Sequence record: SRR31156797_9699
Length of the DNA: 43,863 nucleotides
Direction: 5' to 3' (one strand)
The position numbers and the translations under genes were made by a program. Each line of letters starts with the position of its first letter. Position 1 is the stretch's first letter. Shown piece after piece: positions 3,196 to 40,764 of the stretch. The notes below the pieces were generated by a model. That model ran no database searches. It was not told the DNA's origin and saw only the letters and a program-made list of their open reading frames with translations.

Positions 3196-3229
3196 GGCTT
3201 CCTCCCCGCCCATTTTCATTTACGCACGG

Positions 3230-4258: not shown

Positions 4259-4319
4259 TTAATTCTCCCGTTGTTGAAGGTTTTTGTTTTAAAGCTCACA
4301 AACACAGCATTTATGCGGC

Positions 4320-18018: not shown

Positions 18019-18049
18019 TGCCCACCCTCGAAATTTGAACGATTGTCGG

Positions 18050-20051: not shown

Positions 20052-20064
20052 GGTCCGACGTCAT

Positions 20065-21330
20065 TTATCCCCTTGCCATGTTTTGGGCAACATACCCCAC
20101 AACCCGGCTCAAAGCGCCCCGGTTTTCAAACACAAAGGCTTTGGCCCGGTCCCCCATGCGCCTGCGCAATCCCGAATTGGACAGAAGGCGTTTCATGGCA
20201 TCGTGAAGTTCCGTGCCACCCTGAACCCGCAGGGCACCGCCGGCCCTCAGAATCGATTCCGACATAAATTCAAAATTATGGGTATGGGGGCCGAACAGGA
20301 CCGGGACACCGAAAGCGGCTGGTTCCAGCAGGTTATGGCCGCCGATGGGAACAAAGCTTCCCCCCACAAAGGCCACGCTGCCCAGGGCATAGACCTGCCC
20401 CAACTCACCCACCGTATCGAGAACCAGAACATCATAGGGATGGCTTTTCGTTGAAACCGTCGTTCTCAGCGCCGGAGCCATGCCTTGAGAGCTAATCATT
20501 TTCGAAATCTCGCGGGCTCTCTCCACATCCCTGGGGGCGATCACCAACCGCAACAGGGGAAACTTCCGTTTCAGGTCCTGAAACGCCCGCAAAATCACCG
20601 CTTCTTCGCCTTCGTGAGTGCTGCCGGCCACCCAGATCAGCATTTCCGGTTTCAATCCAAGGGTTTCCAGCCAACGCCTTTTTTCGCCCATATCCATGGT
20701 GACCATTTCACGGTCAAATTTGATATTGCCCGCGGTGATGACCTTTTTTCGGTCCATTCCCAGCTGCAGCAGCCGGTCCCGATCCAGATCCGTCTGCATG
20801 AGGCAGTATGCCAAAGGCGCAAACATACGCCTGATTACAGCCGGCGCCTTTTGGTAGGATTTCAGGGTACGGGGGGAGATGCGCCCATTCACCAGAAGGC
20901 TCCCGACACCTTTCCGCTTCAAAAAATCCAAGAGACCGGGCCACAAATCCGTTTCAACCAGAATAAATACAGAGGGGTTCACATGATTTATGACGCGCCC
21001 CATGCACCACCAGGCATCCACCGGCAAGGTCAGGATGCACGCGACCCGACCTGAGAGTTTTTCCTTTGCCAGGGCCATTCCACTTCGGGTGGTCACGGAA
21101 AAAACGATCTCTTTTTCAGGGAACGCCACCTTCAGCCGCTCCAGCAGGGGAATGGCCGATAGTACCTCCCCCACCGAAAGGGCGTGAACCCAGAGATTGC
21201 CATTTTTTATCAGACCTTTCGGCAAGTTCAACGCAAGCCGCTCCCTTAAGCGCCGGCTTCCTGAAAAATAAGCGGGCACAAGGAAAAAAACCAGCGGAAA
21301 ACTCCACAGAAAATGATATAAAAACATCAT
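20065..21330 (-). CDS. waaA: 3-deoxy-D-manno-octulosonic acid transferase
   Basis: WVHALSVGE, ETDLWP, GNIKFD, AGSTH.GEE, GGHNLLEPA. Confidence 0.95.
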   Translation of the reverse strand: MMFLYHFLWSFPLVFFLVPAYFSGSRRLRERLALNLPKGLIKNGNLWVHALSVGEVLSAIPLLERLKVAFPEKEIVFSVTTRSGMALAKEKLSGRVACILTLPVDAWWCMGRVINHVNPSVFILVETDLWPGLLDFLKRKGVGSLLVNGRISPRTLKSYQKAPAVIRRMFAPLAYCLMQTDLDRDRLLQLGMDRKKVITAGNIKFDREMVTMDMGEKRRWLETLGLKPEMLIWVAGSTHEGEEAVILRAFQDLKRKFPLLRLVIAPRDVERAREISKMISSQGMAPALRTTVSTKSHPYDVLVLDTVGELGQVYALGSVAFVGGSFVPIGGHNLLEPAAFGVPVLFGPHTHNFEFMSESILRAGGALRVQGGTELHDAMKRLLSNSGLRRRMGDRAKAFVFENRGALSRVVGYVAQNMARG

Positions 21331-27084: not shown

Positions 27085-28476
27085 TTAGCCCTGAGCCACC
27101 ATCTCTTTAAGTAGTTCCGAAAGTATTTTCAGGCCCATTTCAGTTTGTTGCAAATTATCGGGACCGGATAGTGAAATTCTGACAGCTTGTTCACGTGGAA
27201 TAGTAATGGCAAAATTTTCAGAACAAAACACCTTTACACCACGGTTTAATGCTTCTCGTTCAAAACGCCGACCAGTAAGTGGTGGCGGCAGTCTTAACCA
27301 GACAAACAAACATCCGCAATATCCTAGATATTCATAATCAGTCAGATATTTTTCTACCAATTCGAATCTTAGTTTTGCCTCTTCAAATTTTTTTTCAATC
27401 AAGACATTCGCTGTTTTGCTATTAATCAGATGCATTGCAATTTGTGCACTCAAAGGCGATGCCATCCAGATAGTGCAAGCGATCGCCTTCAAAGCGTGTT
27501 GTCTTAATTCATCATTGGGAGTTAATAGATAAGCAATTTTTAAACCCGCCCAGAAAGATTTAGATAAACCGGAAATGTAAAACCCCTGATCAGGTACCCT
27601 TGAAAGCAAAGAACTATATCTTGTAGAATCATATACGCCACGGGAGTGACTCTCAATAACGGTAAGATGATAATGCTGAATAATTTTGGCTATCTCATCT
27701 TTTCTGTTTTCAGGCATTGTTATTGTTGTCGGATTCTGCATTACGCTCATAATATGAATTCCCAGAACTTTGTCTCTCCGACAGATGGTGTCAAGATGTT
27801 CCGGCACCATGCCGTTTTCATCCATATTAATCGGGACAAGCATAATACCCAGAAGACCTGCCAGGTTTTTCAAGAACGGATAAACAAAACAATTGACGGC
27901 AACCTTGGTACCTGCCCTGAAATAAGACAAACAACAGGTCATTGCATGATGCAAACCGGCACAAATCACAATGTCATCGGCTGAAGCCGCTATGCCCTGG
28001 TGTTCTAACCATTTAGCCCCGGCCAGCCTATGCTCGGGCCAGCCGGCATTATCGGTATAGGTCATTAATTTATTAAGTTTTTCCGAACCCAAACATTCCA
28101 TCAATGGTTCTGAAATATCCAGATCATTTTCAACGATTGGCAAAACCAGTCCCATTTCGATAACATCAGGCTGAAAAACAATCTTGTTATCGGAGACAGC
28201 CATGGTAGTAGATACAAAGGTTCCCCGCCCCGTAACGCCGGCGATTAACCGACGTCTTGCCGCTTCCCGATACCCTCGGCTAACAGTTGACAGATTTATC
28301 TGCAAATCATCTGCAAGATCCCGTTGGGTGGGCAATTTGTCACCCGGGGCAATCTCGCCGCTAAGAATCTTTTGTTCAATGGCATCGGCAATGCCCATAT
28401 AGGCAAGACAATTACCTTCGATATCATCTTTTGTAATCTTTACAATCATTTGGCCAATATAAATCTTGTTCCCCAT
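27085..28476 (-). CDS. MocR/GabR family regulator (GntR HTH plus aminotransferase-like domain)
   Basis: LPTQRDLA...STVSRGY...GRGTFV, QNPTT, GLSKS. Confidence 0.9.
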   Translation of the reverse strand: MGNKIYIGQMIVKITKDDIEGNCLAYMGIADAIEQKILSGEIAPGDKLPTQRDLADDLQINLSTVSRGYREAARRRLIAGVTGRGTFVSTTMAVSDNKIVFQPDVIEMGLVLPIVENDLDISEPLMECLGSEKLNKLMTYTDNAGWPEHRLAGAKWLEHQGIAASADDIVICAGLHHAMTCCLSYFRAGTKVAVNCFVYPFLKNLAGLLGIMLVPINMDENGMVPEHLDTICRRDKVLGIHIMSVMQNPTTITMPENRKDEIAKIIQHYHLTVIESHSRGVYDSTRYSSLLSRVPDQGFYISGLSKSFWAGLKIAYLLTPNDELRQHALKAIACTIWMASPLSAQIAMHLINSKTANVLIEKKFEEAKLRFELVEKYLTDYEYLGYCGCLFVWLRLPPPLTGRRFEREALNRGVKVFCSENFAITIPREQAVRISLSGPDNLQQTEMGLKILSELLKEMVAQG

Positions 28477-28748: not shown

Positions 28749-29720
28749 TCAAACCCTGGTTTTATTCTTTATGGCATCACAGAGGGCAGGAAAAAATTTA
28801 AACATATCTTCAACAATACCAAAATCCGCTTTTGTAAAAATTTGGGCTTGTTCATCCAGATTAATGGCAACAATCACCCTGGCTCCCCTAAAACCGGCAC
28901 AATGAAAAATTGACCCGGATATCCCCCAGGCAAAATACAAATCGGGACTTATATTATGTCCTGTCTGGCCAATCTGTGCGGAAAAAGGTGCATATCCGGC
29001 GTCAACAGCACTTCTTGTTGCGCCGACGGATATATTTAACTGTGCTGTAGCTTCCTGAAATTCTTTAAACTTTGCTGCTGACCCAAAACCCAACCCCCCA
29101 CCAAAAACAGTTTTTGCGGTTAAAATATCATTTTTATGTTTTATGGGGGTCCTTGAAATAATTTCCATACTATCTTTAGTTTCAGATTTAGCCACATCCA
29201 TAGCAAGGGGAAAAAAATTAAATTTTTTTTGCCGTGTTAAAATATCCGGATTCACGGTATAGAAATTGACCGGACCCGGCATGGCATATTCCGCATGCGC
29301 CATGCCCGCGTATATCCTTTTGCTTGCCACGCAATTATTTAGATCGACATCTACACAATTGTGCAACAAAGGTGCGTTGGATAAAACAGCACACCGGGAA
29401 ACAATATCATGTCCTGTCTGACCGGCAACAGCTATGAAATCATCAAGATCGATTTTTTCAATACTAGACGCAAGAGTCCGTGCGTAAACATCGGGAGATT
29501 CATGGACACAAATTGCCGACCCTAAATCCAGGAAATATTGCGCCCCATTCTCACCCATCGTGTTAAGAAAACCGGGCTTAATTGTCTGGGAACCAAAGGC
29601 AAAAACTTCGCATTTTTGTTGTGCCACAAAATTGAGCAAATCAAAAGATGACGTTTTAATTTTTCCATCACGTTGGGTATCAAGAAAAACACCCACTTTC
29701 CTTTTACTGTTTTCAAACAA
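28749..29720 (-). CDS. etfA: Electron transfer flavoprotein alpha subunit
   Basis: GGGLG, VGATRSAVDAG, QIGQTG, YFAWGISGS, AINLD. Confidence 0.9.
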   Translation of the reverse strand: MFENSKRKVGVFLDTQRDGKIKTSSFDLLNFVAQQKCEVFAFGSQTIKPGFLNTMGENGAQYFLDLGSAICVHESPDVYARTLASSIEKIDLDDFIAVAGQTGHDIVSRCAVLSNAPLLHNCVDVDLNNCVASKRIYAGMAHAEYAMPGPVNFYTVNPDILTRQKKFNFFPLAMDVAKSETKDSMEIISRTPIKHKNDILTAKTVFGGGLGFGSAAKFKEFQEATAQLNISVGATRSAVDAGYAPFSAQIGQTGHNISPDLYFAWGISGSIFHCAGFRGARVIVAINLDEQAQIFTKADFGIVEDMFKFFPALCDAIKNKTRV

Positions 29721-30489
29721 GATTAATCCCTTTTTTTTTCAGTGCATCCAACAAATTTATTGCCTTTTCTTCAACACTGCTGCCTAAAATCATCTGACAG
29801 GTACGTGATGGATCACACTTATGAATACTTTTCAGACAAGGGGAAGTTATGTCAACATCTTTTCTTTCTGCCGATAAAGTCGGGATCTCTTTTTCCTGAG
29901 CATCCATGAGATTTTTTAAAGTGGGATACGGAAGTGTAATCTCGTTTTTTTCACACATCAGCAAACAAGGCATTTTTGTCTCGATGATTTCATCCATATC
30001 ATCATATTGTCGTTTCGCTTGTATCATATTCTTTCGAGTTTTCAGACCGGATATCCCTGGAACAATATCCAGATTCAACATGGATGCTAACCGATACGGA
30101 ACCTCCGCATTGGCCATGCCGATGGATTGTGCGCCACACAGAATAATATCCGGCATTTTATTATACTTTCCAGCTAAGTGGAGCACGCCCCGGGACAGAG
30201 CAAAAGCAGTATTTTGAGGGGAATCTATCGGATCAAGACCGCTGACATAAACCGCATCCAAAACGCCCATAGCCAAACTTTTATACAAATATGTCACACA
30301 ATCTTCTTCATCTTTTTTACACCCTGCACTGACGATACAGACATCACCGCCAAGACTTAAGGCCAGAGACAGGGCATGGACATCATAAAAACTCATTACC
30401 TCGGGTTTTGGAACCATAAAATTGCCGGTATCAATGCGGGATATGGCATCGGCATCAGGCACATACTTTACGCATACGCTGATAAGCAT
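29713..30489 (-). CDS. etfB: Electron transfer flavoprotein beta subunit
   Basis: VCVKYVPD, LAMGV, IILCGAQS, YPTL; directly upstream of etfA. Confidence 0.85.
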   Translation of the reverse strand: MLISVCVKYVPDADAISRIDTGNFMVPKPEVMSFYDVHALSLALSLGGDVCIVSAGCKKDEEDCVTYLYKSLAMGVLDAVYVSGLDPIDSPQNTAFALSRGVLHLAGKYNKMPDIILCGAQSIGMANAEVPYRLASMLNLDIVPGISGLKTRKNMIQAKRQYDDMDEIIETKMPCLLMCEKNEITLPYPTLKNLMDAQEKEIPTLSAERKDVDITSPCLKSIHKCDPSRTCQMILGSSVEEKAINLLDALKKKGINLV

Positions 30490-30491
30490 AA

Positions 30492-31583
30492 TTAAATACC
30501 GGGTTTTGAGCCTATTGCATCAGCCCTACGAATAGCAACCTCAAGAATATCTGTTGTAATTTCACACGGCATATTAAAAATAATGTTGGGTGGCATGCAT
30601 ATTTTTTTAATCATTTTTTTAATCATCGGATCTTCTGCATCCGTAACCCCCATGCTGGCCAGATTTGTCGTCAAACCAAACTGCTGTAGAAATACCACCA
30701 TCTGTTCTATATATTCTTGCGGTCTTTTTTCAAGAACCAGTTGAACAATAAGACCAAAACTTACAGACTCTCCATGCAGCACCTGTTGGGTTGCACTAAT
30801 CATACTCAGCCCGGAACTTATGGCGTGCCCCGCTGCCAATCCGCCGTTTTCAAATCCAAGACCACTCAATAAAATCGAAGCCTCCACAACATTTTCAAAC
30901 GCTTGGCTATGGACTTTCGCTTTGACGGATTTATAGGCTTCGGGACCCTCATTCCGGATAATATCCCAACACAGATCGGACAATGCAACCGCCGTCCGGG
31001 AAATACCGCTGTTATAGAAATTTGAGGCACCGGATTTGTAGCAGGCGTCTGCCTCAAACTTCGTTGCGGCGGCATCGCCTATCCCGGCGGCAAAAAATCT
31101 TACCGGAGATTTCAAAATGATATCCGTGTCAACAAGAACACACCAGGGGGAAAATTTCATCTCCACCACTCTGTCTTTACTATGATCTTCTTTATAGATA
31201 AGAGCGATATGACTGGCCGGGGCATCGGTGGAAGCAATGGTGGGAACGATTGCAACCGGAGCATTAAGCTTTATGGACATGGCTTTTACAGTATCGGCCA
31301 CCTTCCCTCCGCCAATGGCCACGATGGCATCACAGGACAATCTTTCGTATTCCTCACATAGTCGTTGAATTTCACGGTCGCAGCACTCGCCCCCAAAAAT
31401 TACATTATATACTTTTTTACCCTGTTTTTTTAATGAATTGGCGGGTCTGTTCCCTACGATATCCGTCACAATCTCATCGGCGGCAAGTAAAAACGATTCT
31501 CCCATGGGACCCAACTTTTCGCCCAAAAGATCGATGGCTCCCTGTCCCTGATAATAACGAAATGGGGCTCCAAAAGTAATCAT
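30492..31583 (-). CDS. gldA: Glycerol dehydrogenase family enzyme
   Basis: YYQGQG, FGGEC, GGGKVADTVK, PTIASTDAP, GIGDA, LSGLGFENGG, LHGE. Confidence 0.88.
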   Translation of the reverse strand: MITFGAPFRYYQGQGAIDLLGEKLGPMGESFLLAADEIVTDIVGNRPANSLKKQGKKVYNVIFGGECCDREIQRLCEEYERLSCDAIVAIGGGKVADTVKAMSIKLNAPVAIVPTIASTDAPASHIALIYKEDHSKDRVVEMKFSPWCVLVDTDIILKSPVRFFAAGIGDAAATKFEADACYKSGASNFYNSGISRTAVALSDLCWDIIRNEGPEAYKSVKAKVHSQAFENVVEASILLSGLGFENGGLAAGHAISSGLSMISATQQVLHGESVSFGLIVQLVLEKRPQEYIEQMVVFLQQFGLTTNLASMGVTDAEDPMIKKMIKKICMPPNIIFNMPCEITTDILEVAIRRADAIGSKPGI

Positions 31584-33142
31584 GTCCCAATAGCCTCGCT
31601 TTTAAAACAATAGTCTACTTCTTTTCCGGTTTCAAATTCATACAGCTTATGATTTATTATGTGCAATGCCTTCTGACTTTTCTTATAAAGTTCAAAAAGT
31701 CTGGTGTATTTTTCATGATTAACCGGATCAGGAATGTTCTTTGAACCGATACGAACACATTTTTCAACGGCATTTTCATGGCTGGAAAAAAGGCCCAATC
31801 CGACACCGGCAGCGACAGCAGCACCAAATGCGGCTTCACAATTTTCCGGATTAAGAATCTCCTGCCCAATAATGTCACACAGGATCTGTCTCCAGAGCGG
31901 GCTTTTTGCCCCTCCCCCGATCAGTCGTATTTCATCAAGCTTAATATTCAAAGGATCAAATACATTCATGCAATCCAGAAGGGAAAAAGATATTCCTTCA
32001 TACAGGGCTTTTACAAGATGTCCGGCTGTATGACGGATGGTAATGCCCAAATAATCACCGCGGAGAAAAGGGTCCATGTACGGTGATTTTTCGCCGAGAA
32101 AATAGGGGTGGAATAACAACCCGTCCGATCCTGCCGGTATCGATTGTGCTTTTTCTTCAATAATGCTGAACGCATCTTTACCGTCCGTACCCAATCCCGG
32201 AAAAAATTGATCCCGGAACCATTTGTGAACCTGGGCGCCTGACAGGGTTGCTGCCACCACATACCACATGTCTGGAACGGGATGAAGATAATTGAACAAC
32301 AGGGGATGAGGGCATGGCTCCGCGCACATGACCGCGGTATTACCGGCAGTCGCTATCTTAAATATGCTCTGGCCGTAATTGATGGCACCGGAGCCATAAT
32401 ATTCCAAAGCCGTATCTGATGATCCGATAATGACCGGAACACCCTCAGGTAAACCGGTACTTTCAGCGGCTTCTCCGCTTACCACACCAGCAACATCCAT
32501 TGCTTCACCGATGGGCGGCAAAGTATGCATGGGCCAATTTATAAATGAGCATAATTCTTCTGACCAGCACTTATTTTTCTGATCAAACATCAATGTTCCC
32601 TGTGCATCTGCATAATCAGTGACCCAGTCTCCGGTAATCCGGTAACGAAGATAATCCTTAGCCGTAAAATGACGTGCAGTTTTTTCCACAACTTCAGGCT
32701 CATGTTTGGCCAGCCATTTGAGTTGCGGTAATGTCCACGTCGGGCTGGCTTTGTGATAGGAGATTTCAAAAATTCTGTCTCCATGATCCCTGTTCAGTTC
32801 CATTACTTCCTGGGTGCTTCTCGTATCTGTCCAAAGAATAGCCGGCCTGAGAACCCTGTCATTTTCATCAATGAGCACAGGCGTATGGGTGGCAGCCGTA
32901 ACACAGATGCCTATTAGGTCGTTTTTATTAATATCCGGCAATGAAAACAGTTCAGCACTGCAATGACAAAGTGCATCCCACCACTCATCAGGCGATTGTT
33001 CCGCCCATCCCTGTTTCAGATAGGTGGTATTTAACTCCTTACTGGCCGAACCCAAAGCACAACCATTCCCACCAAGCAAAGTCAATTTCATATTACTTGA
33101 ACCAATATCAATGCCAAGCACAAATTTTTGTTCATTTTTCAT
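31580..33142 (-). CDS. FGGY family carbohydrate kinase (xylulokinase-like)
   Basis: LGIDIGSS, AEQSP, PAILWTDTR, KDYLRY, PYFLGEKSP, GGGAKS. Confidence 0.9.
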   Translation of the reverse strand: MKNEQKFVLGIDIGSSNMKLTLLGGNGCALGSASKELNTTYLKQGWAEQSPDEWWDALCHCSAELFSLPDINKNDLIGICVTAATHTPVLIDENDRVLRPAILWTDTRSTQEVMELNRDHGDRIFEISYHKASPTWTLPQLKWLAKHEPEVVEKTARHFTAKDYLRYRITGDWVTDYADAQGTLMFDQKNKCWSEELCSFINWPMHTLPPIGEAMDVAGVVSGEAAESTGLPEGVPVIIGSSDTALEYYGSGAINYGQSIFKIATAGNTAVMCAEPCPHPLLFNYLHPVPDMWYVVAATLSGAQVHKWFRDQFFPGLGTDGKDAFSIIEEKAQSIPAGSDGLLFHPYFLGEKSPYMDPFLRGDYLGITIRHTAGHLVKALYEGISFSLLDCMNVFDPLNIKLDEIRLIGGGAKSPLWRQILCDIIGQEILNPENCEAAFGAAVAAGVGLGLFSSHENAVEKCVRIGSKNIPDPVNHEKYTRLFELYKKSQKALHIINHKLYEFETGKEVDYCFKSEAIGT

Positions 33143-33145
33143 TTT

Positions 33146-33436
33146 TTATTTCCTTATATCAGGTACTATCTCTTTGAGAACCTTTCCAATTAAATCAGGA
33201 GTGTTGATCGTATGGGGACAGGACTTATTACACCCTAATACGGCCTCACCCTGCTGTAGGTGATCGATAATCTCCTTGTTTACTTCAACATATCCGTTTA
33301 ACGATGCATAAGCGAGGTACGCCATGGCAGATGCGGCTAACGATTCTTTAATGCTCACAGATTCAGGAAATGTAATTCTACAGGGATTTGGACAAAAGGC
33401 ACAAAAACAAAGTTGTTCTTTTTCAAAATCATTCAT
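33146..33436 (-). CDS. Small Fe-S protein (GlpC/ferredoxin-like cysteine motifs)
   Basis: CAFCPNPC and CNKSCP; translationally coupled (TAATG) to the upstream flavoprotein. Confidence 0.6.
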   Translation of the reverse strand: MNDFEKEQLCFCAFCPNPCRITFPESVSIKESLAASAMAYLAYASLNGYVEVNKEIIDHLQQGEAVLGCNKSCPHTINTPDLIGKVLKEIVPDIRK

Positions 33437-34905
33437 TATATTTCTCCCCGGCGCAATCCCAGCTTTCCAGGATTCATAATGTTATTCGGATCGATTGTAT
33501 CTTTTATTTGCTGCAAAAGTTCATGCCCGTATCCAAGTTCCGCAGCCAACCACTGACCACGCATCAACCCGATACCATGATGATGAGCGATGCTTCCGCC
33601 ATTCTCCATGCTGGCGGTTTCAACCTTTTCCCAGATTTCCTGCTGATATTTTTCAGCTTTTTCTCGATCATCGCCCGGCACCACAAAGGTCATATAACAA
33701 CAGGCACCATCAGGGTATATATGGGACCAATGTGCACTAAAATGAACATTCGGAATGGACCCGGTCACAGAATTACAGCAAGACTCATATATGGCTGGAA
33801 GCGAAGACCAGCGTGCTGATATTTCAATGGTATCCATAAAGCGACCCTGTGAATAATGTTTTGCGGAAAACGATTCATAACGATGGGCAAACCACTCCTC
33901 AGCCGGTTTATTTCCAGCAATGACACCGCCATGTTTTACACAAATATCACGGGCAACTTTTTTCTGGGCTAAAGCGAACTCTTTAACACCGGTAAAAGTT
34001 AACACACAAAGACAGGACCCTTCCGGGTAATCATCATGACCGGCAATTCTTGATGCAGACTCATGAACATCGTAAAGCCTGGCAAGGTTCAACCTTAATC
34101 CTGACTGCATAATCTTGCGCAACGCATCTAATGCATCTGCGTAATGAGCAAAAGCAAAACTCATGAGACATTCATTTTCCGGATAGGGCCAGATGCGCAT
34201 AGTGGCCTCGGCAATGATTCCCATTGTACCCTCTGCACCGATAAAGATATCAGCCAGAGAAGGACCTGTTGATCTTCGCGGTACAGGCTTGATTTCCAGC
34301 AGTTTGCCATTGGGCAGAACAACCTTCATTCCGGCAACCATATCTTCAGCCTTACCGTAACGACTTGAAACCTGACCGGCACCCCGGCAGGCCAACCAAC
34401 CGCCAACAGTGGACATATTAAGGGATTGGGGCAAATGACCGCAAGTCAGGCGCCTGCTATTCAGATAACTTTCAAACGTACCGCCATTTATTCCGGCTTC
34501 AACAGCAACAAGACCACTGATTTCATCAAGTTCGACAACCTTGTCAAGTCTTTTCAAATCAATACTCACAACTTCCGGAGACAACGGAACTGCCGCTCCC
34601 AGCACACCTGAACCTGCACCATAGGGAATCATTACCTGTTTTTCCCTATTTAAAAGTTCAACAACAGCACACAGCTCATCAATATTTTCAGGGATTACCA
34701 CGGCTCTTGGCAAATGGGTGGGCAGCTTGCCAAAACGATATTGAAGATTGCCGTATGGCCATCTATCACGACCATAAGCCAGTTTATCAGTAAAAGAAGT
34801 TAAGATATTATTTTCACTCACAATCCCAGCCAGAGGTTTAAACCAGCTTTTTTGACGGGTTGTGTCATTTTGCGCCTGTATATCTTTTATAATCGCATTT
34901 TTCAT
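33436..34905 (-). CDS. FAD-binding oxidoreductase, alkyl-dihydroxyacetonephosphate synthase / YgcU-like
   Basis: PYGAGSGV, GHLPQS..STVGGW, GAEGTMGII, AHWSHIY, HHHGIG, DPNNIMNPGKL. Confidence 0.85.
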   Translation of the reverse strand: MKNAIIKDIQAQNDTTRQKSWFKPLAGIVSENNILTSFTDKLAYGRDRWPYGNLQYRFGKLPTHLPRAVVIPENIDELCAVVELLNREKQVMIPYGAGSGVLGAAVPLSPEVVSIDLKRLDKVVELDEISGLVAVEAGINGGTFESYLNSRRLTCGHLPQSLNMSTVGGWLACRGAGQVSSRYGKAEDMVAGMKVVLPNGKLLEIKPVPRRSTGPSLADIFIGAEGTMGIIAEATMRIWPYPENECLMSFAFAHYADALDALRKIMQSGLRLNLARLYDVHESASRIAGHDDYPEGSCLCVLTFTGVKEFALAQKKVARDICVKHGGVIAGNKPAEEWFAHRYESFSAKHYSQGRFMDTIEISARWSSLPAIYESCCNSVTGSIPNVHFSAHWSHIYPDGACCYMTFVVPGDDREKAEKYQQEIWEKVETASMENGGSIAHHHGIGLMRGQWLAAELGYGHELLQQIKDTIDPNNIMNPGKLGLRRGEI

Positions 34906-34935
34906 GTTTTTTGGCCACTCTATTTAATATTAAAA

Positions 34936-35643
34936 TTATATACCCAAGTATTTTTCTTTTACACCCGGATTATTTAAAAGTTCATCCCCTGAACCTTCCA
35001 TCACAACCATACCGTTTTCAATCACATAAGCTTTATGAGACATTAAAAGCGCTGCATAAAGATTTTGCTCAACCAAAAGTATGTTGAACTCTTCTTTTCT
35101 AAGATCATCTAATATTTCAAAAACCTGTTCAACAACAATAGGTGCAAGCCCCAGAGAAGGTTCATCAACCAGCATCAATTTAGGCGCTGTCATCAACCCC
35201 CTTCCCATGCTCACCATTTGCCGCTCACCTCCGCTGAGAGTACCGGCATCTCTGGAAAGTTTATCTTTAATATTCGGAAATTTATCAAGGACCCAGGCCA
35301 ATCTAACTTTGTTTTCCGCTTGTTTTTTGCGATGCAGGTATGAGCCAATCTGTAGATTATCAAGCACACTCATCTTATTGAAAAGTTGCCACCCCTCAGG
35401 AATAAGGGTAATACCAAGCTTTGCCCGTTCATGGGTGGGCAAATTACTGATATCGGCATTTTCAAAGATTATGCGCCCGCTTTTCAGGGGAACCAAACCG
35501 GCAATGGCTTTAAGAGTGGTTGATTTGCCCGAGTTGTTACTCCCCACAACGGCAACTGTTTTGCCGGGGTTCAATTCAAGGTTTACTTTCCTTAAAACCG
35601 AAAGATCACCGTAGTCAACACAAATGTCTTCAAGTTTAAGCAT
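34936..35643 (-). CDS. livF: LIV-type ABC transporter ATPase
   Basis: GSNNSGKST, LSGGERQM, DEPSLGLAP, VEQN. Confidence 0.92.
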   Translation of the reverse strand: MLKLEDICVDYGDLSVLRKVNLELNPGKTVAVVGSNNSGKSTTLKAIAGLVPLKSGRIIFENADISNLPTHERAKLGITLIPEGWQLFNKMSVLDNLQIGSYLHRKKQAENKVRLAWVLDKFPNIKDKLSRDAGTLSGGERQMVSMGRGLMTAPKLMLVDEPSLGLAPIVVEQVFEILDDLRKEEFNILLVEQNLYAALLMSHKAYVIENGMVVMEGSGDELLNNPGVKEKYLGI

Positions 35644-36361
35644 TATAATTTTTCCCTAAATATGCAGTAATAACCCGTTCGTCCTGACTGACTTCTTTGG
35701 GTTTTCCTACGGTAATGAGTTCACCATGATCAAGAACAATAACACGGAAAGAAATGGCCATAACTGCTTGCATTAAATGTTCTACAAAAAAAATAGTCGT
35801 TTCTTTTTCTTTATGGATGGCTCTGATCAAATCAAGCATCTGAGACACCTCATTGGGATTCAGCCCTGCCATCAATTCATCAAGCAATAAAAGTTTAGGC
35901 TTTGTTGCCAGAGCCCTTGCCAGTTCAGATCGCTTTCTATCCGAAAAATTTAATTTGCCGATCTTTTTATCCCATTGATCCTCAAGGCCCACGTATTCTA
36001 ATACCTCAAAGGCAGAACGCCTGGCATCTTTCAACGAAGAATCATGCACCAGGCTGCCTAAAATGGTGGATTGCAAAACAGTCATCCCCATTAACGGCCT
36101 CGTTGTCTGGGTGGTTATGGCGATACCGTTCCGGCAGATCTGATAAGGTTTATGTTGAGTTATATCTATGCCGTTAAATTTAATTTGGCCTTCATTGGGG
36201 GGCAAGAATCCGGTAATCATGCGAAAAAGCGTGGATTTACCGGCACCGTTCGGGCCAACAAGCCCAATGATTTCGCCTTTTTTCATATCGAAATTCACAT
36301 CTCCAATGGCGACAACTCCGGAAAAAATTTTACTTAAATGATTCACTTCTAGTAATTTCAT
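35636..36361 (-). CDS. livG: LIV-type ABC transporter ATPase
   Basis: GPNGAGKST, ELARALAT, LLLDELMAGLN, VEH, AYLG. Confidence 0.92.
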   Translation of the reverse strand: MKLLEVNHLSKIFSGVVAIGDVNFDMKKGEIIGLVGPNGAGKSTLFRMITGFLPPNEGQIKFNGIDITQHKPYQICRNGIAITTQTTRPLMGMTVLQSTILGSLVHDSSLKDARRSAFEVLEYVGLEDQWDKKIGKLNFSDRKRSELARALATKPKLLLLDELMAGLNPNEVSQMLDLIRAIHKEKETTIFFVEHLMQAVMAISFRVIVLDHGELITVGKPKEVSQDERVITAYLGKNYNA

Positions 36362-36478
36362 CTTAGGCCCTTATCACCAGGTTTCCTGTCACAAAGAACA
36401 AGGAAATTTTTTGGCAGGTATAACATTAATGAAGTCCTTCTGGTTTTCTCAATTTTTTAGGTTGTGGACGTCGCCCGC

Positions 36479-37450
36479 CTAGTCCTTTTTTTGTGGAATA
36501 ACAAACTCAAGGAAACCTCTCAACCCTTGAGGTCTGAGCATAATCACCACAATAAGAAGAACCCCGTAAAGTATTCCCGATAAGCCGGCATAGGTGCCAC
36601 CTAAAAGACCACGAATCAACTCGTCAGGGACAATAACAATAAACGCACCAAGCAATGGCCCTAAAATTGTTCCAATGCCTCCGATTACCGTAACGATTAT
36701 TATCTTTATAGACAGGTTAAAGCTAAAAACAACGTCCGGTTCCAAAACACCGATATATAAGGCATAAAAAGCACCGCCCAGTGCCGTCAAGAAGGCGCTG
36801 AGCATGGCTGCCTTAATCTTTACTTTACCGGTATTTATTCCTGAACTTGTTGCGGCCTCCTCATCTTCTTTGATCGCCTGGCAACTGATACCAAACCGGG
36901 TTCTTTCAAAGAATATAGTCACAATTAAAGTAAAAAACATTAACCCAAGGCTAATGTAATAATATTCAGATCTTGAAATATTCAAAGTCTGAACACTCAT
37001 TCCCAAAGGACCTCCGGTCAAAGACTCATGAAAAAGAGCAAGTTTTCGTAAAATTTCGGCCAAAGCGAAAGTAGTTAAGGCAAAGAAAATACCCGTAAGC
37101 CGCAAACTGCTCAATCCAATAATAAAAGCAAGAGCCACTGAAAAGAAAGCACCGGCCAATAATCCAACAATAATACTACCTTTATATTGAAGGATTATAA
37201 TACCCATTGAATACCCGGCAATACCAAAGAATGAGGCATGGCCAACGGAAAATTGTCCGCAATATCCTCCCAGAATATTCCAGGCAGAACTTAGCATGGC
37301 AAAAAGCATTACCATTATAAGAATATGCAGCAGCCATGAGCTGGTTACCAGCAAGGGCAGACATCCGAAGATCACGGCAATGATGGCAAGGTAAGTCTTC
37401 AGTGCTTTATCACGTTGTCTACCGTGTTCAAGAACTTTAAAAAATGACAT
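36479..37450 (-). CDS. livM: LIV-type ABC transporter permease
   Basis: WNILGGYCGQFSVGHA, TGGPLG, GGIGTILGP, RPQGL. Start at MSFFK after GGAG. Confidence 0.88.
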   Translation of the reverse strand: MSFFKVLEHGRQRDKALKTYLAIIAVIFGCLPLLVTSSWLLHILIMVMLFAMLSSAWNILGGYCGQFSVGHASFFGIAGYSMGIIILQYKGSIIVGLLAGAFFSVALAFIIGLSSLRLTGIFFALTTFALAEILRKLALFHESLTGGPLGMSVQTLNISRSEYYYISLGLMFFTLIVTIFFERTRFGISCQAIKEDEEAATSSGINTGKVKIKAAMLSAFLTALGGAFYALYIGVLEPDVVFSFNLSIKIIIVTVIGGIGTILGPLLGAFIVIVPDELIRGLLGGTYAGLSGILYGVLLIVVIMLRPQGLRGFLEFVIPQKKD

Positions 37451-37454
37451 CTGT

Positions 37455-38312
37455 TTAACCCTCTCCAAAAATGCCCGCAGGACGGATAAGAATAATCAAA
37501 ATAAATAAGAAGAAGAGTATTGGATCATGATACCCGGGCGTATAATATGAAATAAACGAGGAGAGTATCCCGACCAAGAAGCTTGAATATAGTGATCCAA
37601 CCAGATTTCCAATCCCCCCCATAACGCAGATCAAAAAAAACAAGGTTAGAAAAGAACCGCCGCTGTGTGGTTCAACGCTGTAGAAAACCATAAGCTGGAA
37701 TGCACCAAAAAGGATATAAACCGCGCTTATTCCAAATACAATAGGAGCGAGCCTTTTTGTATTAATTCCAATAACCGAGGCCATATCTTTATTCTGGACC
37801 AGAGCTTTAATACATTTTCCATACCAGCTTTTATTAAGGAATAAATACCCCACACCAAGCAGGGTCAACGAAATCAGGAAAATGTAAAACCGGGTCAGGC
37901 TGATATAAATATCTTCCCCGATAAGCGCGCCCTGCTCCATTGCACCGAGTGATCGTGGAAAACTCCCCCAAATTGAATGGGCAAGATTTTCAAGAACAAT
38001 GACCAGCCCCATGGTCAATAATATCTGGATTTCCTCATTTTCGGAAAAAACAATGAATCGTCTGACAACCCATCCGAAAGCATAAGCAATCGGCATCAAT
38101 ATTAAAACTGTCAGGGCTATGGGAACCTTGAGTGAAATGAAAACAAACACCCCATACATGGCAAACATAAGCATGGCGCCATAGCCGAAATTGGTAACTT
38201 TAAGCGCCCCGATCTGAAAATTGAAATTGACAGCCAATAATGCATAGATGCCACCGGAAAATATCCCGGCCACTAAAATAGTAACAAATGTACCGAAATC
38301 CACTATTTTCAT
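37455..38312 (-). CDS. livH: LIV-type ABC transporter permease
   Basis: GGIYALLA, NFGYG, MGGIGN, RPAGIFG. Confidence 0.88.
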   Translation of the reverse strand: MKIVDFGTFVTILVAGIFSGGIYALLAVNFNFQIGALKVTNFGYGAMLMFAMYGVFVFISLKVPIALTVLILMPIAYAFGWVVRRFIVFSENEEIQILLTMGLVIVLENLAHSIWGSFPRSLGAMEQGALIGEDIYISLTRFYIFLISLTLLGVGYLFLNKSWYGKCIKALVQNKDMASVIGINTKRLAPIVFGISAVYILFGAFQLMVFYSVEPHSGGSFLTLFFLICVMGGIGNLVGSLYSSFLVGILSSFISYYTPGYHDPILFFLFILIILIRPAGIFGEG

Positions 38313-38408
38313 CTCCTGTTATCTGCCGCTTTCTATCGTTATTTCAGCAGGTTGATTAACAGTTTAGAACCGTCAGCATAACTTTCCGGCTTGAATTCCA
38401 AGGTGTAA

Positions 38409-38461
38409 ATCCGGGTAGAAAGTGGTATCAAACGCCCCCACCCCTCCCGACGGAACGGCTC
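38409..38461 (-). mobile_element. Possible 3' remnant of a group II intron (truncated domain V, domain VI)
   Basis: Minus strand GAGCCG...TTCCGT CGGGAGGGGTGG...CCACTTTCT-A-CCCG GAT: stem with a bulged A 8 nt from an AT end. Confidence 0.4.
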
Positions 38462-38524
38462 GTTCAGCAAGGAGAATCTCTCTCCAATTAGCAAATGGAA
38501 CAAGGGTAGTTCAAGCGGTCGCTT

Positions 38525-38790
38525 AAGGAAACTCAGCTAAGAGACTATGACGGGATAATCGGTCATAACCCCATAGCCCACGGTGCGATATATTTTTTTG
38601 CGATTGAGCAACGTTGTCATGATGACCCAAAAACCAGTGGCGATCTATTTATCGCCAGTTGCGAAAAAATCAAAGTTCTCTCTTTGAAAGAAGCGCTACA
38701 AAGATTGTTGGCGCCTGCGCTTGACAAAACCTGTTCATCAAATGAATCCACCGAAAGTATTGCTGCCGGTCTTTTCATTTACGGTACAGC
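38525..38790 (+). pseudogene. C-terminal fragment of an IS4-family-like DDE transposase
   Basis: KETQLRDYDGIIGH...FFAIEQRCHDDPKTSGDLF..SCEKIKVLSLKEALQRLL, antisense to the operon. Confidence 0.6.
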
Positions 38791-38821
38791 AAGCCGCAAG
38801 CGCCGCAGATCAAAAACAGAT

Positions 38822-40033
38822 CTAACGTTTGCTAAACGGTTTCAGAGGCAACTCAAGCTTGCCAACTGCAAATTCTTCAGGCCATACAACAACATATTTT
38901 CCCTTTTTCCATTGAGCAAGAACCAAAGGCTTTCCGGCTCTTTCATTCTGGTGGGTTTGAGGATCAAACTTACACCCCCAATAAGACGGTGTCTTTCCAG
39001 GTGCAACATCTGTTTTTGCAAGAGCCTCACGGATTTTTTCAACATCAATGGAACCAGCCCGTTCAATTGCATCAAGATAAATCAAAGTCGCAGTATATGC
39101 CTGTAAGGCATGGGTTAACGGTGCATGACCAAATCGTTTGGTATATGTTTCTTTGAAATCAAGCAAACCAGGTGCAATATTCGGGTTCATCTCAGGATTG
39201 GTAAAACTTATTGCCAAAGCGCCATCGGCAGCTTTTTCCCCAAGAGTAGCAAATTCGGGCTGATCATAAATCAAACCGGCCCCCAACATAATTGGGGGTT
39301 CGTAATTCATTGCATACATCTGCTTTCTGAAAGCCAGACCATCGGCGGTATATTGTGCCGCAATGACAATATCAGGTTTATGCTTTTTAACTTTGAGGAT
39401 CAGTGATGCAAAATCTTTCAGATCACTTGGATAGCTTTCATGATAGATTTTTTTTATACTACTGGCTTTCAATTGCTTGAGAATAGGCTCAGTGACATAC
39501 CCTGTTAAATCAGAATTCACCACAACGATTTTAAGATCACTTTCCTTCTTGCCCAAATATTTTGTCCCAAGCAAAGGAGCCAGCTTGCCAATCTCTTTCC
39601 CAAAAATTCCGGTGTGAGGAGAAAAACGATAGTAATATTGAAGACCGTTCTGGGTTAAGGACTCGGCCCAGTTAACCGTGCCAAGACATAAAACTTTATA
39701 TCGTTCTGCAACTTTTTGATATGCTTTCTCAATAGAAGAGCCATACCCGCTGATAATAACCTTAAGTTTTTCCCGGGTAATTAGACGTTCCATTTCAGCA
39801 ACACCTGCAGTTGCATCAGGGGTATTACCAACAATCAGTTCAATTGGTTTTCCAAAAATTGTTTTTTTAGCTTCTACAGCCAGTGTCACCCCGTTTTTAA
39901 CTTCATTCCCCCCAAAACTCAAACCTCCTGTCAAAGGGGTTATCAAGCCTATCCTTACCGTATCTGCCGCCTGAACTGTAAAAGCGAACAAACACAAACC
40001 AAATAATAAAATAATCCTTGCAAATTTAACCAT
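38822..40033 (-). CDS. LIV-type ABC transporter periplasmic binding protein
   Basis: Signal peptide (VQA-AD), TVRIGLITPLTG, C-terminal QWKKGKYVVVWP. Confidence 0.9.
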   Translation of the reverse strand: MVKFARIILLFGLCLFAFTVQAADTVRIGLITPLTGGLSFGGNEVKNGVTLAVEAKKTIFGKPIELIVGNTPDATAGVAEMERLITREKLKVIISGYGSSIEKAYQKVAERYKVLCLGTVNWAESLTQNGLQYYYRFSPHTGIFGKEIGKLAPLLGTKYLGKKESDLKIVVVNSDLTGYVTEPILKQLKASSIKKIYHESYPSDLKDFASLILKVKKHKPDIVIAAQYTADGLAFRKQMYAMNYEPPIMLGAGLIYDQPEFATLGEKAADGALAISFTNPEMNPNIAPGLLDFKETYTKRFGHAPLTHALQAYTATLIYLDAIERAGSIDVEKIREALAKTDVAPGKTPSYWGCKFDPQTHQNERAGKPLVLAQWKKGKYVVVWPEEFAVGKLELPLKPFSKR

Positions 40034-40141
40034 GTCATGATCTCCTTTTATTTGTTTTTATTAAGTGCAATTATAAATAAATAACATTTTTCTTATTGAT
40101 CCTGTTTGACTATTGCATGTATTTTTTCATAAAAGCAACAA

Positions 40142-40166
40142 TTATATTGTTTGCATGACAATATAA
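40142..40166. promoter_or_regulatory. Perfect 9-bp inverted repeat upstream of the island operon (candidate MocR operator)
   Basis: TTATATTGT-TTGCATG-ACAATATAA. Confidence 0.6.
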
Positions 40167-40203
40167 ACAGTCAAAGGGTTGTAAATCACAGCCTTTGAAA
40201 AAA

Positions 40204-40459
40204 GGTGCTGTCCGGCCTTCTCATTTGGCATACTATCTCGATGAATTCACTTTTCGTTTCAATCGGCGTGTAAGCACATTTCGTGGAAAGCTTTTTACCG
40301 ATTGGTACAGCAAGCAATGATGATAGATCCAGCGCCAGCGTATTCATTGAAAGGGCCGGTCTTGCCTTTCCTCACTGGGCTGGACAATTCAAAGTTGGAT
40401 CCTTTGGACGAAGACCTCGACCCCTATATGTGGTGGGTGCTTGAGCGAAGTGCATACCC
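40204..40459 (+). mobile_element. IS1595-family remnant: transposase C-terminus and right end
   Basis: GAVRPSHLAYYLDEFTFRFNRR..RGKLF, a frameshift in the T run 40292-40296, then YRLVQQA; ends in AAGTGCATACCC. Confidence 0.8.
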
Positions 40460-40576
40460 ACGAAAACAAATAACCTAATGACAAAAATTTATAACGTATT
40501 AAAGAGGGGATGGGACGTCAGCGCCAGAACACACATTCAAGCTGGCTGTAAACAATAAGATTTGCATGAAGGGGGG

Positions 40577-40606
40577 CCTTCGTTCTACTTGAAAGCAGAA
40601 CGAAGG
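40577..40606. repeat. Perfect 10-bp inverted repeat downstream of glyS
   Basis: CCTTCGTTCT-N10-AGAACGAAGG, with no U-tract on either strand. Confidence 0.6.
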
Positions 40607-40764
40607 TCATTGTTCAATGCGGCTGTGAGATTAAAAAGCACGGTACTTTGTTTGAAATTCGTCGCCCTGATCACTGAAACGCAAAAACAGGGTATCTTGG
40701 GCAGGGCCTCAAAAAGCAGGCTCTGATCGTAGGAAACGTTGATTGTTACCACAAGACGCGGAGT

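Follow-up and report, generated by a model that had tools for sequence, protein, structure and literature searches.

An eleven-gene operon centred on a flavoprotein resembling AGPS

The DNA analysed here, 43,863 nucleotides from sequence record SRR31156797_9699 (hereafter, the window), carries eleven open reading frames (ORFs) at positions 28749–40033, all on the minus strand and, according to the ORF list, at the very limits given beforehand in an initial annotation of the locus. Genes were identified by scanning the window proteins with Pfam and NCBIfam models, which, the Fe-S protein aside, bore out the gene set named in that annotation: an ABC importer, a flavoprotein, an Fe-S protein, a kinase, a glycerol dehydrogenase and a pair of electron-transfer flavoprotein (ETF) subunits. 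At the centre stands a FAD flavoprotein resembling alkyl-dihydroxyacetone-phosphate synthase (AGPS, also termed ADPS). The locus holds an uncharacterised version of a known enzyme scaffold in a well-defined operon, which we tentatively connect with the uptake and breakdown of compounds that carry a glycerol-like end.

In the direction of transcription, the first five genes encode the importer: a periplasmic, HAAT-type (Liv/urea/amide) solute-binding protein (SBP; Peripla_BP_6) that bears a signal peptide (38822–40033), a LivH/UrtB-like permease (37455–38312; BPD_transp_2, E 2.4e-23), a LivM/UrtC-like permease (36479–37468; BPD_transp_2, E 4.7e-37), a LivG-like ATPase (35636–36361; ABC_tran and BCA_ABC_TP_C) and a LivF-like ATPase (34936–35643; ABC_tran). 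They are followed by the AGPS-like flavoprotein, which has 489 amino acids (aa) and the VAO fold (33436–34905; FAD_binding_4 and FAD-oxidase_C), and by a cysteine-rich protein of 96 aa, a proposed single-[4Fe-4S] subunit (33146–33436). The remaining genes code for a xylulokinase-like FGGY kinase of 520 aa (31580–33142; FGGY_N, FGGY_C and the XylB model), a GldA-like, NAD-dependent enzyme of the glycerol dehydrogenase family with 363 aa (30492–31583; Fe-ADH and PRK09423), a divergent ETF beta-type subunit of 258 aa (EtfB-like; 29713–30489; ETF, E 3.9e-18) and a divergent ETF alpha-type subunit of 323 aa with a TTG start (EtfA-like; 28749–29720; ETF_alpha, E 1.9e-23, and ETF). From the flavoprotein gene through etfA, no gap between neighbours exceeds 3 bases and some genes overlap. 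A metagenome contig (L088) has all eleven genes in identical order, with proteins 26–59% identical to those of the window, arguing that the arrangement did not arise by chance.

Sequence, profile and fold place the flavoprotein nearer AGPS than the hydroxyacid dehydrogenases of lactate and glycolate

Two motifs that the initial annotation had associated with AGPS, H.PQS..STVGGW and HHHGIG, are both present in the translation, the first as HLPQSLNMSTVGGW at residues 157–170 and the second at residues 441–446. In the PDB alignments, AGPS reads H.PDS..ST[LV]GGW and HHHGVG, so the first motif of the window differs from it once, with Q for D. Three comparisons rank AGPS ahead of D-lactate dehydrogenase (D-LDH). 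When the single sequence was searched against the PDB with phmmer, AGPS (2uuu, E 1.6e-56; 4bby, 2.6e-51) scored above D-LDH (8jdb, 1.2e-37); a profile of the 16-sequence family gave AGPS 295 bits versus 200 bits for D-LDH, about 95 bits apart; and a Foldseek search with an AlphaFold2 model (pLDDT 82.8) returned AGPS (5ae3_C; TMq 0.84, E 6.8e-34) versus mLDHD at TMq 0.78. Identity to AGPS amounts to 27–30%.

The active-site residues follow the same pattern. R276, Y404 and H441–443 of the window protein align with R419, Y578 and H615–617 of guinea-pig AGPS, in which the His-His-His (HHH) loop has a catalytic role. The Arg, Tyr and HHH positions are kept in 79–80 of 80 relatives, and also in YgcU of E. 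coli. In E. coli GlcD, by contrast, E takes the place of R276, M that of Y404 and G-E-H that of H-H-H; the E of GlcD, at the position of H442 in the window, is a metal ligand in the hydroxyacid enzymes, whose metal-binding active-site pattern comprises GEHG and a His...His ahead of it. The GlcD models of NCBIfam reach 157 and 77 bits versus cut-offs of 567.9 and 897. The earlier assignment of the flavoprotein to an AGPS-like rather than a GlcD/D-LDH type is thus upheld by profile scores and residues alike.

An excerpt of a review covering ADPS (PMC3509576) names R352, Y508 and R447, in Dictyostelium numbering, as important in mutagenesis, describes the Tyr as the likely base that takes the C1 proton of the dihydroxyacetone phosphate (DHAP) moiety, and states that the enzyme requires oxidised flavin without undergoing a net redox change. 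Y508 and R352 of the Dictyostelium enzyme correspond to Y578 and R419 in guinea pig and to Y404 and R276 in the window. PDB entries for the guinea-pig variants Arg419His (4bc7) and Tyr578Phe (4bca) are among our fold-search listings.

Several features set the window protein apart from genuine AGPS. The profile alignments span residues 92–583 of the Dictyostelium and 178–652 of the guinea-pig enzyme, which leaves the N-terminal 90–177 residues of AGPS without counterpart in the 489-aa protein. The same excerpt (PMC3509576) attributes control of the C16 channel to a gate helix in a domain found in ADPS only. Pfam and NCBIfam scans detected no acyltransferase, fatty acyl reductase, lipase or beta-oxidation gene in the window operon; in Myxococcus xanthus, according to an excerpt of PMC13012113, the genuine AGPS gene adjoins acyltransferase and fatty acyl reductase genes (MXAN_1676–1674). 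The flavoprotein should therefore not be annotated as alkyl-DHAP synthase, given that it differs in the N-terminal region, at the R447 position, in gene context and in redox partners. Relatives do carry that label in several source databases. The branch is a large one: among 8000 candidates scored, 4173 database proteins matched at E ≤0.001, the closest of them being 55% identical to the flavoprotein.

A 96-aa protein is predicted to dock on the flavoprotein

The start codon of the 96-aa gene overlaps the flavoprotein stop by 1 base. This small ORF had no match in Pfam or NCBIfam, and a PDB search returned noise only. Four cysteines (C12, C15, C19 and C73; CxxCPxxCR...C) are invariant in 15 of 15 sequences, and in an hhalign comparison the family aligned to residues 2–85, the Fer4_8 domain, of 360-aa Fer4_8+CCG proteins (probability 97.3%, E 2.3e-11). 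The latter are the proteins encoded downstream of the flavoprotein gene in Bacillota-type loci (see below). The nearest Atlas clusters comprise proteins of about 100 aa, several with Fer4_8, and serve as leads only. Because of the Fer4_8 homology and the four cysteines, we regard the 96-aa protein as a one-cluster remnant of a ferredoxin domain of the GlcF/HdrD type and propose that it carries a single [4Fe-4S] cluster. The Fe-S protein of the initial annotation can be equated with this ORF on the same two grounds.

Structure prediction suggests that the 96-aa protein docks on the flavoprotein. The ipSAE was 0.95 in three runs versus 0.00 for the best of 3 controls, the pLDDT of the partner was at least 84, and at least 98% of contacts were common to the runs. 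The ipSAE mark is reached by 51 of 78 solved complexes and by 2 of 108 mismatched pairs, a calibration that is approximate here since FAD and the cluster were included. In the predicted complex, the Cys loop (residues 10–21) contacts flavoprotein residues 95–99 and 161–164.

Kinase, dehydrogenase, ETF subunits, importer and regulator

The kinase scores just above the cut-off of the XylB model (TIGR01312; 387.8 versus 380.25 bits), and its closest solved relative is E. coli XylB (2itm, E 2.4e-67). The GldA-like enzyme lies well over the PRK09423 cut-off (398.1 bits versus 336) and has a glycerol dehydrogenase as its closest solved relative (1kq3, E 8.9e-81).

The ETF subunits are more divergent. 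The closest solved relative of the EtfB-like protein is CarD of the caffeyl-CoA reductase–Etf complex (6fah_B), at a weak E of 1.3e-14, followed by other beta subunits of the bifurcating type; all NCBIfam ETF models fell far under their cut-offs for this protein, which also gave a weak match to the model of an acryloyl-CoA reductase electron-transfer subunit. The EtfA-like protein has 1efp_A as its closest solved relative (E 2.6e-31), its nearest relatives are non-bifurcating ETFs, and it contains no ferredoxin domain. The lactate dehydrogenase/Etf complex LctBCD (7qh2) is found among the PDB matches of the flavoprotein, the EtfB-like and the EtfA-like protein.

The combination of Peripla_BP_6, two BPD_transp_2 permeases and LivG-/LivF-type ATPases places the importer in the HAAT family. 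The binding protein matches Peripla_BP_6 at E 4.9e-46, its N-terminus (MVKFARIILLFGLCLFAFTVQA) forms a signal peptide, and its closest solved structure is 8wch (E 1.1e-33), which an excerpt of PMC11485210 identifies as SAR11_0655 with L-pyroglutamate. The two permease genes (37455–38312 and 36479–37468) overlap by 14 bases. The UrtB and LivH models of NCBIfam match the LivH/UrtB-like permease under cut-off, as do LivG (191.9 bits) and LivF (219.4 bits) on the two ATPases, and all substrate-specific models (urea, Liv) stayed far under their cut-offs for the importer proteins.

A probable MocR-type regulator of 463 aa, with a GntR helix-turn-helix (HTH) and an aminotransferase-fold domain, is encoded on the same strand 272 bases downstream of etfA (27085–28476). 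Its residues 96–459 match aminotransferases at E 3.6e-12 and lower, its HTH matches GabR, and the Pfam aminotransferase model fell short of E 0.001. The stretch GLSKSF presumably holds the lysine for pyridoxal phosphate. We infer that the regulator belongs to the operon. A MocR counterpart was found in none of 160 related loci (0 of the 117 that span at least 9 kb); the relatives use LacI or GntR/UTRA regulators.

Related loci keep the flavoprotein and exchange its companions

To place the operon in context, we compared the loci of the best 80 of 576 relatives in genome contigs and of the best 80 of 187 in metagenome contigs, two sets that were not de-duplicated. Alignments served as queries; a genome scan with the single protein alone gave no relatives. 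The loci were compared by BLAST with the window proteins, by clustering of all ORFs and by Pfam searches on cluster representatives. Genomes hold at least 576 relatives, as 576 of the 600 pattern matches listed encode one.

In the nearest clade, whose flavoproteins are 50–55% identical to that of the window, two loci (L001 and L083) consist of a GntR/UTRA regulator, a distant FGGY kinase, an epimerase-like dehydrogenase, the same HAAT importer, the flavoprotein and the Cys protein; their binding proteins are 68–70% identical to the window's. Three others (L090, L098 and L101) are variants in which the importer is of the HAAT or the CUT1 type and is accompanied by a GlpK-like kinase, an epimerase-like enzyme and a short-chain dehydrogenase/reductase (SDR), with GldA in L098 and L101; the kinase of the sister locus L090, equivalent to that of L001 and L083, scores as GlpK-like. 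L087 encodes, in this order, a HAAT importer, the flavoprotein, the Cys protein, an SDR, the kinase, EtfB and EtfA, and L088 retains exactly the eleven-gene order of the window. The kinases of L087 and L088 are 59% identical to that of the window.

About 45 genome loci of alpha-, beta- and gamma-proteobacteria combine a LacI regulator, the flavoprotein, a small Cys protein (in some), an XylB-like kinase (39–47% identical to the window's), a CUT1 ABC importer, an SDR and a GldA-like enzyme (35–42%). Strains of Xanthobacter autotrophicus and Afipia, to which L006 and L018 belong, are examples of cultured bacteria with this form. The CUT1 binding protein of this type has a sorbitol binder as its closest solved relative, at a weak E of 6.3e-11. 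This structure and 8wch are both too distant to give the ligand of the binding proteins. Some of the proteobacterial loci (L009:6008–9864, L010, L017, L023 and L027; L011:14636–18973; L037, L043 and L046) have additional neighbours of three kinds: two sulfatases with a TctC-type binding protein; a TonB-dependent receptor with a GH31 glycosidase; and an MttB-family methyltransferase with a GMC oxidoreductase and SBP_bac_5. Such neighbours may hint at a group on a glycerol-like core; the examples are few and partly related, and we give them no weight.

In Bacillota, Syntrophomonadaceae and one metagenome-assembled genome of Desulfovibrio (L048 and L051–L068), the flavoprotein is joined by a Fer4_8+CCG protein and a diacylglycerol-kinase-like kinase. 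Within these loci (L051:9917–13531 and its kin), the kinase consists of DAGK_cat and YegS_C, and YtxC and ThrRS genes adjoin; they could represent a lipid-linked version of the module. Loci from Acidimicrobiia (L070–L080) combine the flavoprotein with a distant FGGY kinase.

Overall, 150 loci extend far enough downstream of the flavoprotein gene to show an Fe-S partner, and 85 of them have one there, as a small Cys protein in 49 and a large Fer4_8+CCG protein in 36. Among the 117 loci of at least 9 kb, an XylB-like kinase was found in 67, another FGGY kinase in 19, a GldA-like enzyme in 59, EtfA in 2 and EtfB in 1. Most related loci pair the flavoprotein with a kinase and an NAD-dependent dehydrogenase, though the types swap, with GlpK-like for XylB-like kinases and SDR or epimerase-like enzymes for GldA, and importers and regulators vary as well. 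No aldolase, isomerase or epimerase is conserved across the clusters. In a quick maximum-likelihood tree (82 rows, built without genuine AGPS sequences), the window groups with L001 (support 99), and a clade of 51 rows joins the window with the proteobacterial type (support 100); YgcU falls outside, on a long branch.

Fusion proteins link the flavoprotein to further activities. P0163 (1050 aa) starts with DAO (4–358) and DAO_C (380–500), the architecture of GlpD/GlpO, and continues with a flavoprotein (626–1041) sharing 39% identity with that of the window. DAO and flavoprotein are likewise fused in P0172, P0173 and P0175, and P0131 combines DAO, DAO_C and two flavoprotein copies. According to precomputed domains, P0188, P0212 and P0214 fuse the flavoprotein to Fer4_8 and CCG, and P0200, P0203 and P0208 to Fer4_8; in P0188, the sole one of the six re-scanned with Pfam, both domains are weak whole-protein matches. 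All fusion proteins listed contain HHHG. A kinase fusion suggested by a precomputed FGGY_C domain in P0218 was dropped, as the Pfam scan did not reproduce the domain.

A tentative route for compounds with a glycerol-like end

Taken together, these data lead us to propose that the operon imports and breaks down a small, water-soluble compound with a glycerol-like end, X-CH2-CHOH-CH2OH, and removes the substituent X oxidatively from C1. We consider this scheme as a whole quite possible, if somewhat short of probable. X is probably polar and possibly bears an amino or carboxyl group, as suggested by the importer type and the MocR regulator.

In this scheme, the HAAT-type ABC system would import the compound, the GldA-like enzyme would oxidise its secondary hydroxyl with NAD+, and the xylulokinase-like FGGY kinase would phosphorylate the free primary hydroxyl to yield a 1-substituted DHAP. 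The flavoprotein, in tight complex with the 96-aa [4Fe-4S] protein, would then attack C1 with its Tyr base, Arg, His-His-His and flavin N5. Two electrons would leave via the Fe-S cluster to EtfBA, unlike in AGPS, and the C1–X bond would be broken oxidatively, giving X-H together with a three-carbon phosphate for central metabolism. The data show the gene set, the AGPS-like active site, the Fe-S nature of the 96-aa protein and the conserved co-occurrence and fusions, and the flavoprotein/Fe-S complex is predicted; which compound is used, in what order the enzymes act, whether a bond is cut and which way electrons flow are all inferred.

Several lines of evidence point this way. A DHAP-like keto-phosphate as the substrate of the flavoprotein is suggested by its AGPS active-site set, by the company of a kinase and an NAD-dependent dehydrogenase, and by the GlpD-type fusions, which argue that a step of the glycerol-3-phosphate dehydrogenase type is joined to that of the flavoprotein. 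In L001 and L083 the importer is kept while the kinase and dehydrogenase are swapped relative to the window, suggesting that what is needed is generic phosphorylation of a primary and oxidation of a secondary hydroxyl. Because no aldolase or isomerase is conserved, the product should lie near central metabolism. A glycerol substituted at one end would be the simplest substrate to call on exactly these activities. As to the chemistry, we favour oxidative removal at C1 because the Fe-S subunit, its Fer4_8+CCG versions and the ETF argue for a net electron transfer that is absent from AGPS.

The initial annotation had pictured a similar sequence of events for a glycerol ether or ester, and its overall interpretation stands in part. 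Oxidation at C2, phosphorylation and delivery of a DHAP-like keto-phosphate to an AGPS-like enzyme fit the co-occurring kinase and dehydrogenase as well as the GlpD/GlpO fusions, and the suggested passage of electrons to an Fe-S protein and ETF agrees with the complex predicted for flavoprotein and Fe-S protein. A lipid substrate, be it an alkylglycerol or a monoacylglycerol, is unlikely given the amino-acid/amide-type importer, the missing N-terminal region of AGPS and the lack of lipid genes. Three further candidates—the sulfonate DHPS, plain 1,2-propanediol and pentitols—were left without support, and neither a sulfite exporter nor an isomerase is conserved.

A number of observations weigh against the proposed cleavage. 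AGPS performs no net redox reaction and has no acceptor, and an Fe-S partner plus ETF would equally fit an ordinary dehydrogenase. The equivalent of R447, the third mutagenesis-tested residue, is K349 in the window, and among 80 relatives the position holds K in 28, Q in 16, P in 9 and R in 6. In 65 of the 150 loci with room, no Fe-S gene lies directly downstream of the flavoprotein gene (L088 is counted here through a pattern miss), and the ETF pair is found in just 2 loci besides the window, so no fixed electron route characterises the family. The GlpK-like kinases of sister loci would act on the alcohol before its oxidation, which a polyol-phosphate dehydrogenase fits too, and up to three NAD-dependent dehydrogenases (L098, L101) hint at more than one secondary hydroxyl. 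The GlpD-type fusions could mean shared electron transfer instead of consecutive steps. Oxidative cleavage would yield a 2-oxo-aldehyde phosphate, for which the operon encodes no follow-up enzyme. In the literature we found no characterised member of the flavoprotein branch and no published function for any, E. coli YgcU included.

Alternative functions of the operon

The main rival to cleavage at C1 is a polyol-phosphate dehydrogenase. The kinase would act first, on a polyol of at least four carbons; the flavoprotein/Fe-S pair would oxidise a secondary hydroxyl by hydride transfer and pass the electrons to ETF, cutting no substituent bond, and the GldA-like enzyme would serve another hydroxyl or a parallel branch. 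Dehydrogenases for phosphorylated polyols are well known, GlpD acting on glycerol-3-phosphate and EryB on erythritol-4-phosphate. The net electron export implied by the Fe-S partner and ETF accords with such a reaction, as do the closest characterised relatives outside AGPS, which are CH-OH dehydrogenases (D-LDH, glycolate oxidase and LctD), the action of GlpK-like kinases on alcohols, and the presence of two or three NAD-dependent dehydrogenases in several loci. The proteobacterial loci add a sugar/polyol-type CUT1 importer and LacI, with the sorbitol binder as the weakly closest structure. However, a three-carbon substrate would leave the NAD-dependent dehydrogenase idle, yet even the smallest clusters (L001 and L083) keep one, and longer polyols would call for isomerases or aldolases, none of which is conserved. 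A GlpD-type fusion would moreover unite two like enzymes in a single polypeptide, and the full Arg/Tyr/HHH set of AGPS is kept, with H442 replacing the E of GlcD. On balance, we judge this alternative rather unlikely, if a serious contender.

The substrate could also be plain glycerol, from which GldA and the kinase would make DHAP, leaving the flavoprotein, Fe-S protein and ETF as a new, oxygen-independent glycerol-3-phosphate dehydrogenase; as in lactate dehydrogenase/Etf, a high-potential donor may then be coupled to NAD+ reduction. GldA scores above its cut-off, sister loci have GlpK-like kinases, the active site is of a DHAP-binding type, and the layout of FAD-linked oxidase, EtfB and EtfA matches that of LctBCD (7qh2). 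Set against this, an amino-acid-type importer and a MocR regulator would be odd for glycerol, the window kinase is XylB-like and not GlpK-like, and the GlpD-type fusions would be redundant, which makes this explanation improbable.

We find it slightly harder still to credit a reversed flow, in which electrons pass from NADH via ETF and the Fe-S protein to the flavoprotein and the substituent on the carbon adjoining the keto group is cleaved reductively, like in the Etf-linked reductases of anaerobes. The likeness of the EtfB-like subunit to CarD and other bifurcating-type betas, together with its weak match to the acryloyl-CoA reductase subunit model, would agree with it, but with E-values of 1e-14 at best these matches are weak, non-bifurcating ETFs are the nearest relatives of the alpha subunit, the product, acetol phosphate, is handled by no encoded enzyme, and most related loci lack ETF.

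A lipid-type glycerol ether or ester that becomes alkyl- or acyl-DHAP before AGPS-type chemistry splits it, as first annotated, has in its favour that AGPS is the closest known enzyme and shares its catalytic residues, and that in the Bacillota and Syntrophomonadaceae loci the flavoprotein stands beside a diacylglycerol-kinase-like lipid kinase, a lipid context elsewhere in the family. It is nonetheless very improbable for the window, where the importer is of the amino-acid/amide type (its closest solved relative binding L-pyroglutamate), the N-terminal region of AGPS has no counterpart, the kinase is a soluble sugar type and, unlike in the M. xanthus AGPS context, lipase, acyltransferase, fatty acyl reductase and beta-oxidation genes are missing. 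Finally, a 2-hydroxyacid dehydrogenase of the lactate/glycolate type working with ETF, with the sugar-type genes as passengers, would explain the Pfam domains shared with GlcD and D-LDH and the GlcD match, but with that match so far below its cut-off, AGPS ahead of D-LDH, the GlcD residues differing at key positions and the flavoprotein gene translationally coupled to—and widely co-occurring with—those of the kinase and GldA, it is scarcely credible.

Comparison with known systems and implications

The closest enzymatic parallel remains AGPS (EC 2.5.1.26; 2uuu from Dictyostelium, 4bby from guinea pig), with which the flavoprotein shares the two-domain VAO fold and the Arg/Tyr/HHH set; its kinase and dehydrogenase partners and the GlpD-type fusions make a DHAP-like substrate end likely. 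AGPS uses acyl-DHAP and a fatty alcohol. The flavoprotein differs from it by its Fe-S subunit and ETF, as deduced from the genes, and by its place in a catabolic operon with an ABC importer.

As a similar gene cluster, the initial annotation had pointed to the E. coli ygc genes, a comparison that holds at the level of annotation. The cluster of strain K-12 (ygcNOPQRSUW, yqcE and ygcE) likewise brings together YgcU, an AGPS-like FAD protein with HHH, the FGGY kinase YgcE, the NAD-dependent SDR YgcW and the ETF pair YgcQR, at low BLAST identities of 23–29% to the window (YgcU 29%, YgcE 24%, YgcR 23%, YgcQ 28%). E. coli has MFS transporters, the GlpP-like antiterminator YgcP and YgcN/YgcO, whereas the window encodes an ABC importer, a GldA-like enzyme, the 96-aa Fe-S protein (predicted to be docked) and a MocR regulator. 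No window protein matched YgcN, YgcO, YgcP, YgcS, YgcW or YqcE at E <1e-3 in BLAST. Judged from these alignments and the tree, the window operon resembles ygc in its kinds of genes and is not orthologous to it. The abstracts surveyed contained no functional data on ygcU, ygcE, ygcW, ygcQ or ygcN, and we found no paper joining AGPS with FGGY.

With LctBCD (7qh2), the window shares the gene order FAD-linked oxidase, EtfB and EtfA and, by the proposed route, a transfer of electrons to ETF; in GlcDEF, electrons are taken by GlcF, one of the Fer4_8+CCG subunits to whose Fer4_8 part the 96-aa protein is homologous. In contrast to both, the window combines an AGPS-type active site with an Fe-S protein that carries one cluster motif and is devoid of CCG, and its EtfA lacks an N-terminal ferredoxin domain. 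The respiratory-type pathways for glycerol (GlpK/GlpD) and erythritol (EryA/EryB) also pair an FGGY kinase with a FAD dehydrogenase on a phosphorylated C3 or C4 compound; the window flavoprotein, however, has the VAO and not the DAO fold, is accompanied by an extra NAD-dependent dehydrogenase and is followed by no isomerases.

To our knowledge, AGPS is the only enzyme known to exchange the C1 substituent of DHAP via a flavin adduct, and its known occurrence is limited to ether-lipid synthesis. Here, a soluble and seemingly catabolic relative retains the HHH loop together with two of the three residues tested by mutagenesis, and gains an Fe-S subunit and, in the window, ETF. With less confidence than for the route itself, and on the whole doubtfully, we suggest that the flavoprotein and its [4Fe-4S] subunit are the first example of an oxygen-independent class of enzymes that break the C1–X bond (ether, thioether or amine) of hydrophilic glyceryl conjugates via flavin N5. 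The amino-acid-type importer and the MocR regulator would suit an X that bears an amino acid. Speculative candidates for such substrates are S-glyceryl-cysteine from bacterial lipoproteins and the glyceryl-homoserine betaine head group of betaine lipids. If this were true, it would open a new, oxygen-independent way of breaking ether-type bonds and fill a gap in how glycerol-linked biomolecules are turned over; the module of dehydrogenase, kinase and flavoprotein would be a general means of stripping the glycerol handle from natural conjugates, and YgcU would acquire a function. Were the flavoprotein a polyol-phosphate dehydrogenase instead, that would still be a new activity on the AGPS scaffold. 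As a test set the operon is compact: it comprises a binding protein for ligand fishing, two helper enzymes with which the substrate could be generated in situ, and a two-subunit enzyme that can be followed optically.

Non-coding regions and genomic surroundings

The 731 bases between glyS and the binding-protein gene (40034–40764) likely form the promoter/operator region of the operon. A pattern scan found promoter-like matches on the minus strand at 40185–40158 and 40174–40146; the count of such matches was not above that expected by chance or in shuffled sequences. Downstream of the binding-protein gene, a gap of 509 bases (38313–38821) contains a terminator-like hairpin (38657–38638), a consensus match of a kind that was not more frequent than in shuffles. 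This long gap and the hairpin may allow the binding protein to be expressed above the membrane parts. A search with Rfam gave no matches across the entire window.

The operon is flanked by mltA on one side and glyS/glyQ on the other. G+C content is 0.40–0.48 across 27–41 kb versus 0.52–0.55 at the glyS/glyQ flank and 0.54 at mltA. The initial annotation had called the locus an island, for which the lower G+C speaks; the window showed no tRNA genes, flanking repeats or integrase, searches for flanking and internal repeats gave short chance-level matches only, and the stretch at 23–26 kb is similarly AT-rich (G+C 0.44–0.45), so we regard an island as plausible only.

Lipopolysaccharide core genes on the minus strand at 15330–21330 (heptosyltransferase family 9, LpxK and Kdo transferase) indicate a Gram-negative host. 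Elsewhere in the window, a fused DctQM TRAP permease, a DctP binding protein and an arylsulfotransferase-like protein are encoded in succession at 1315–5762 on the minus strand. At 9727–14528 on the plus strand, a metallophosphoesterase of 427 aa is followed by a 1173-aa AAA_27/AAA_23 protein, together forming an SbcCD-like nuclease/ATPase pair.

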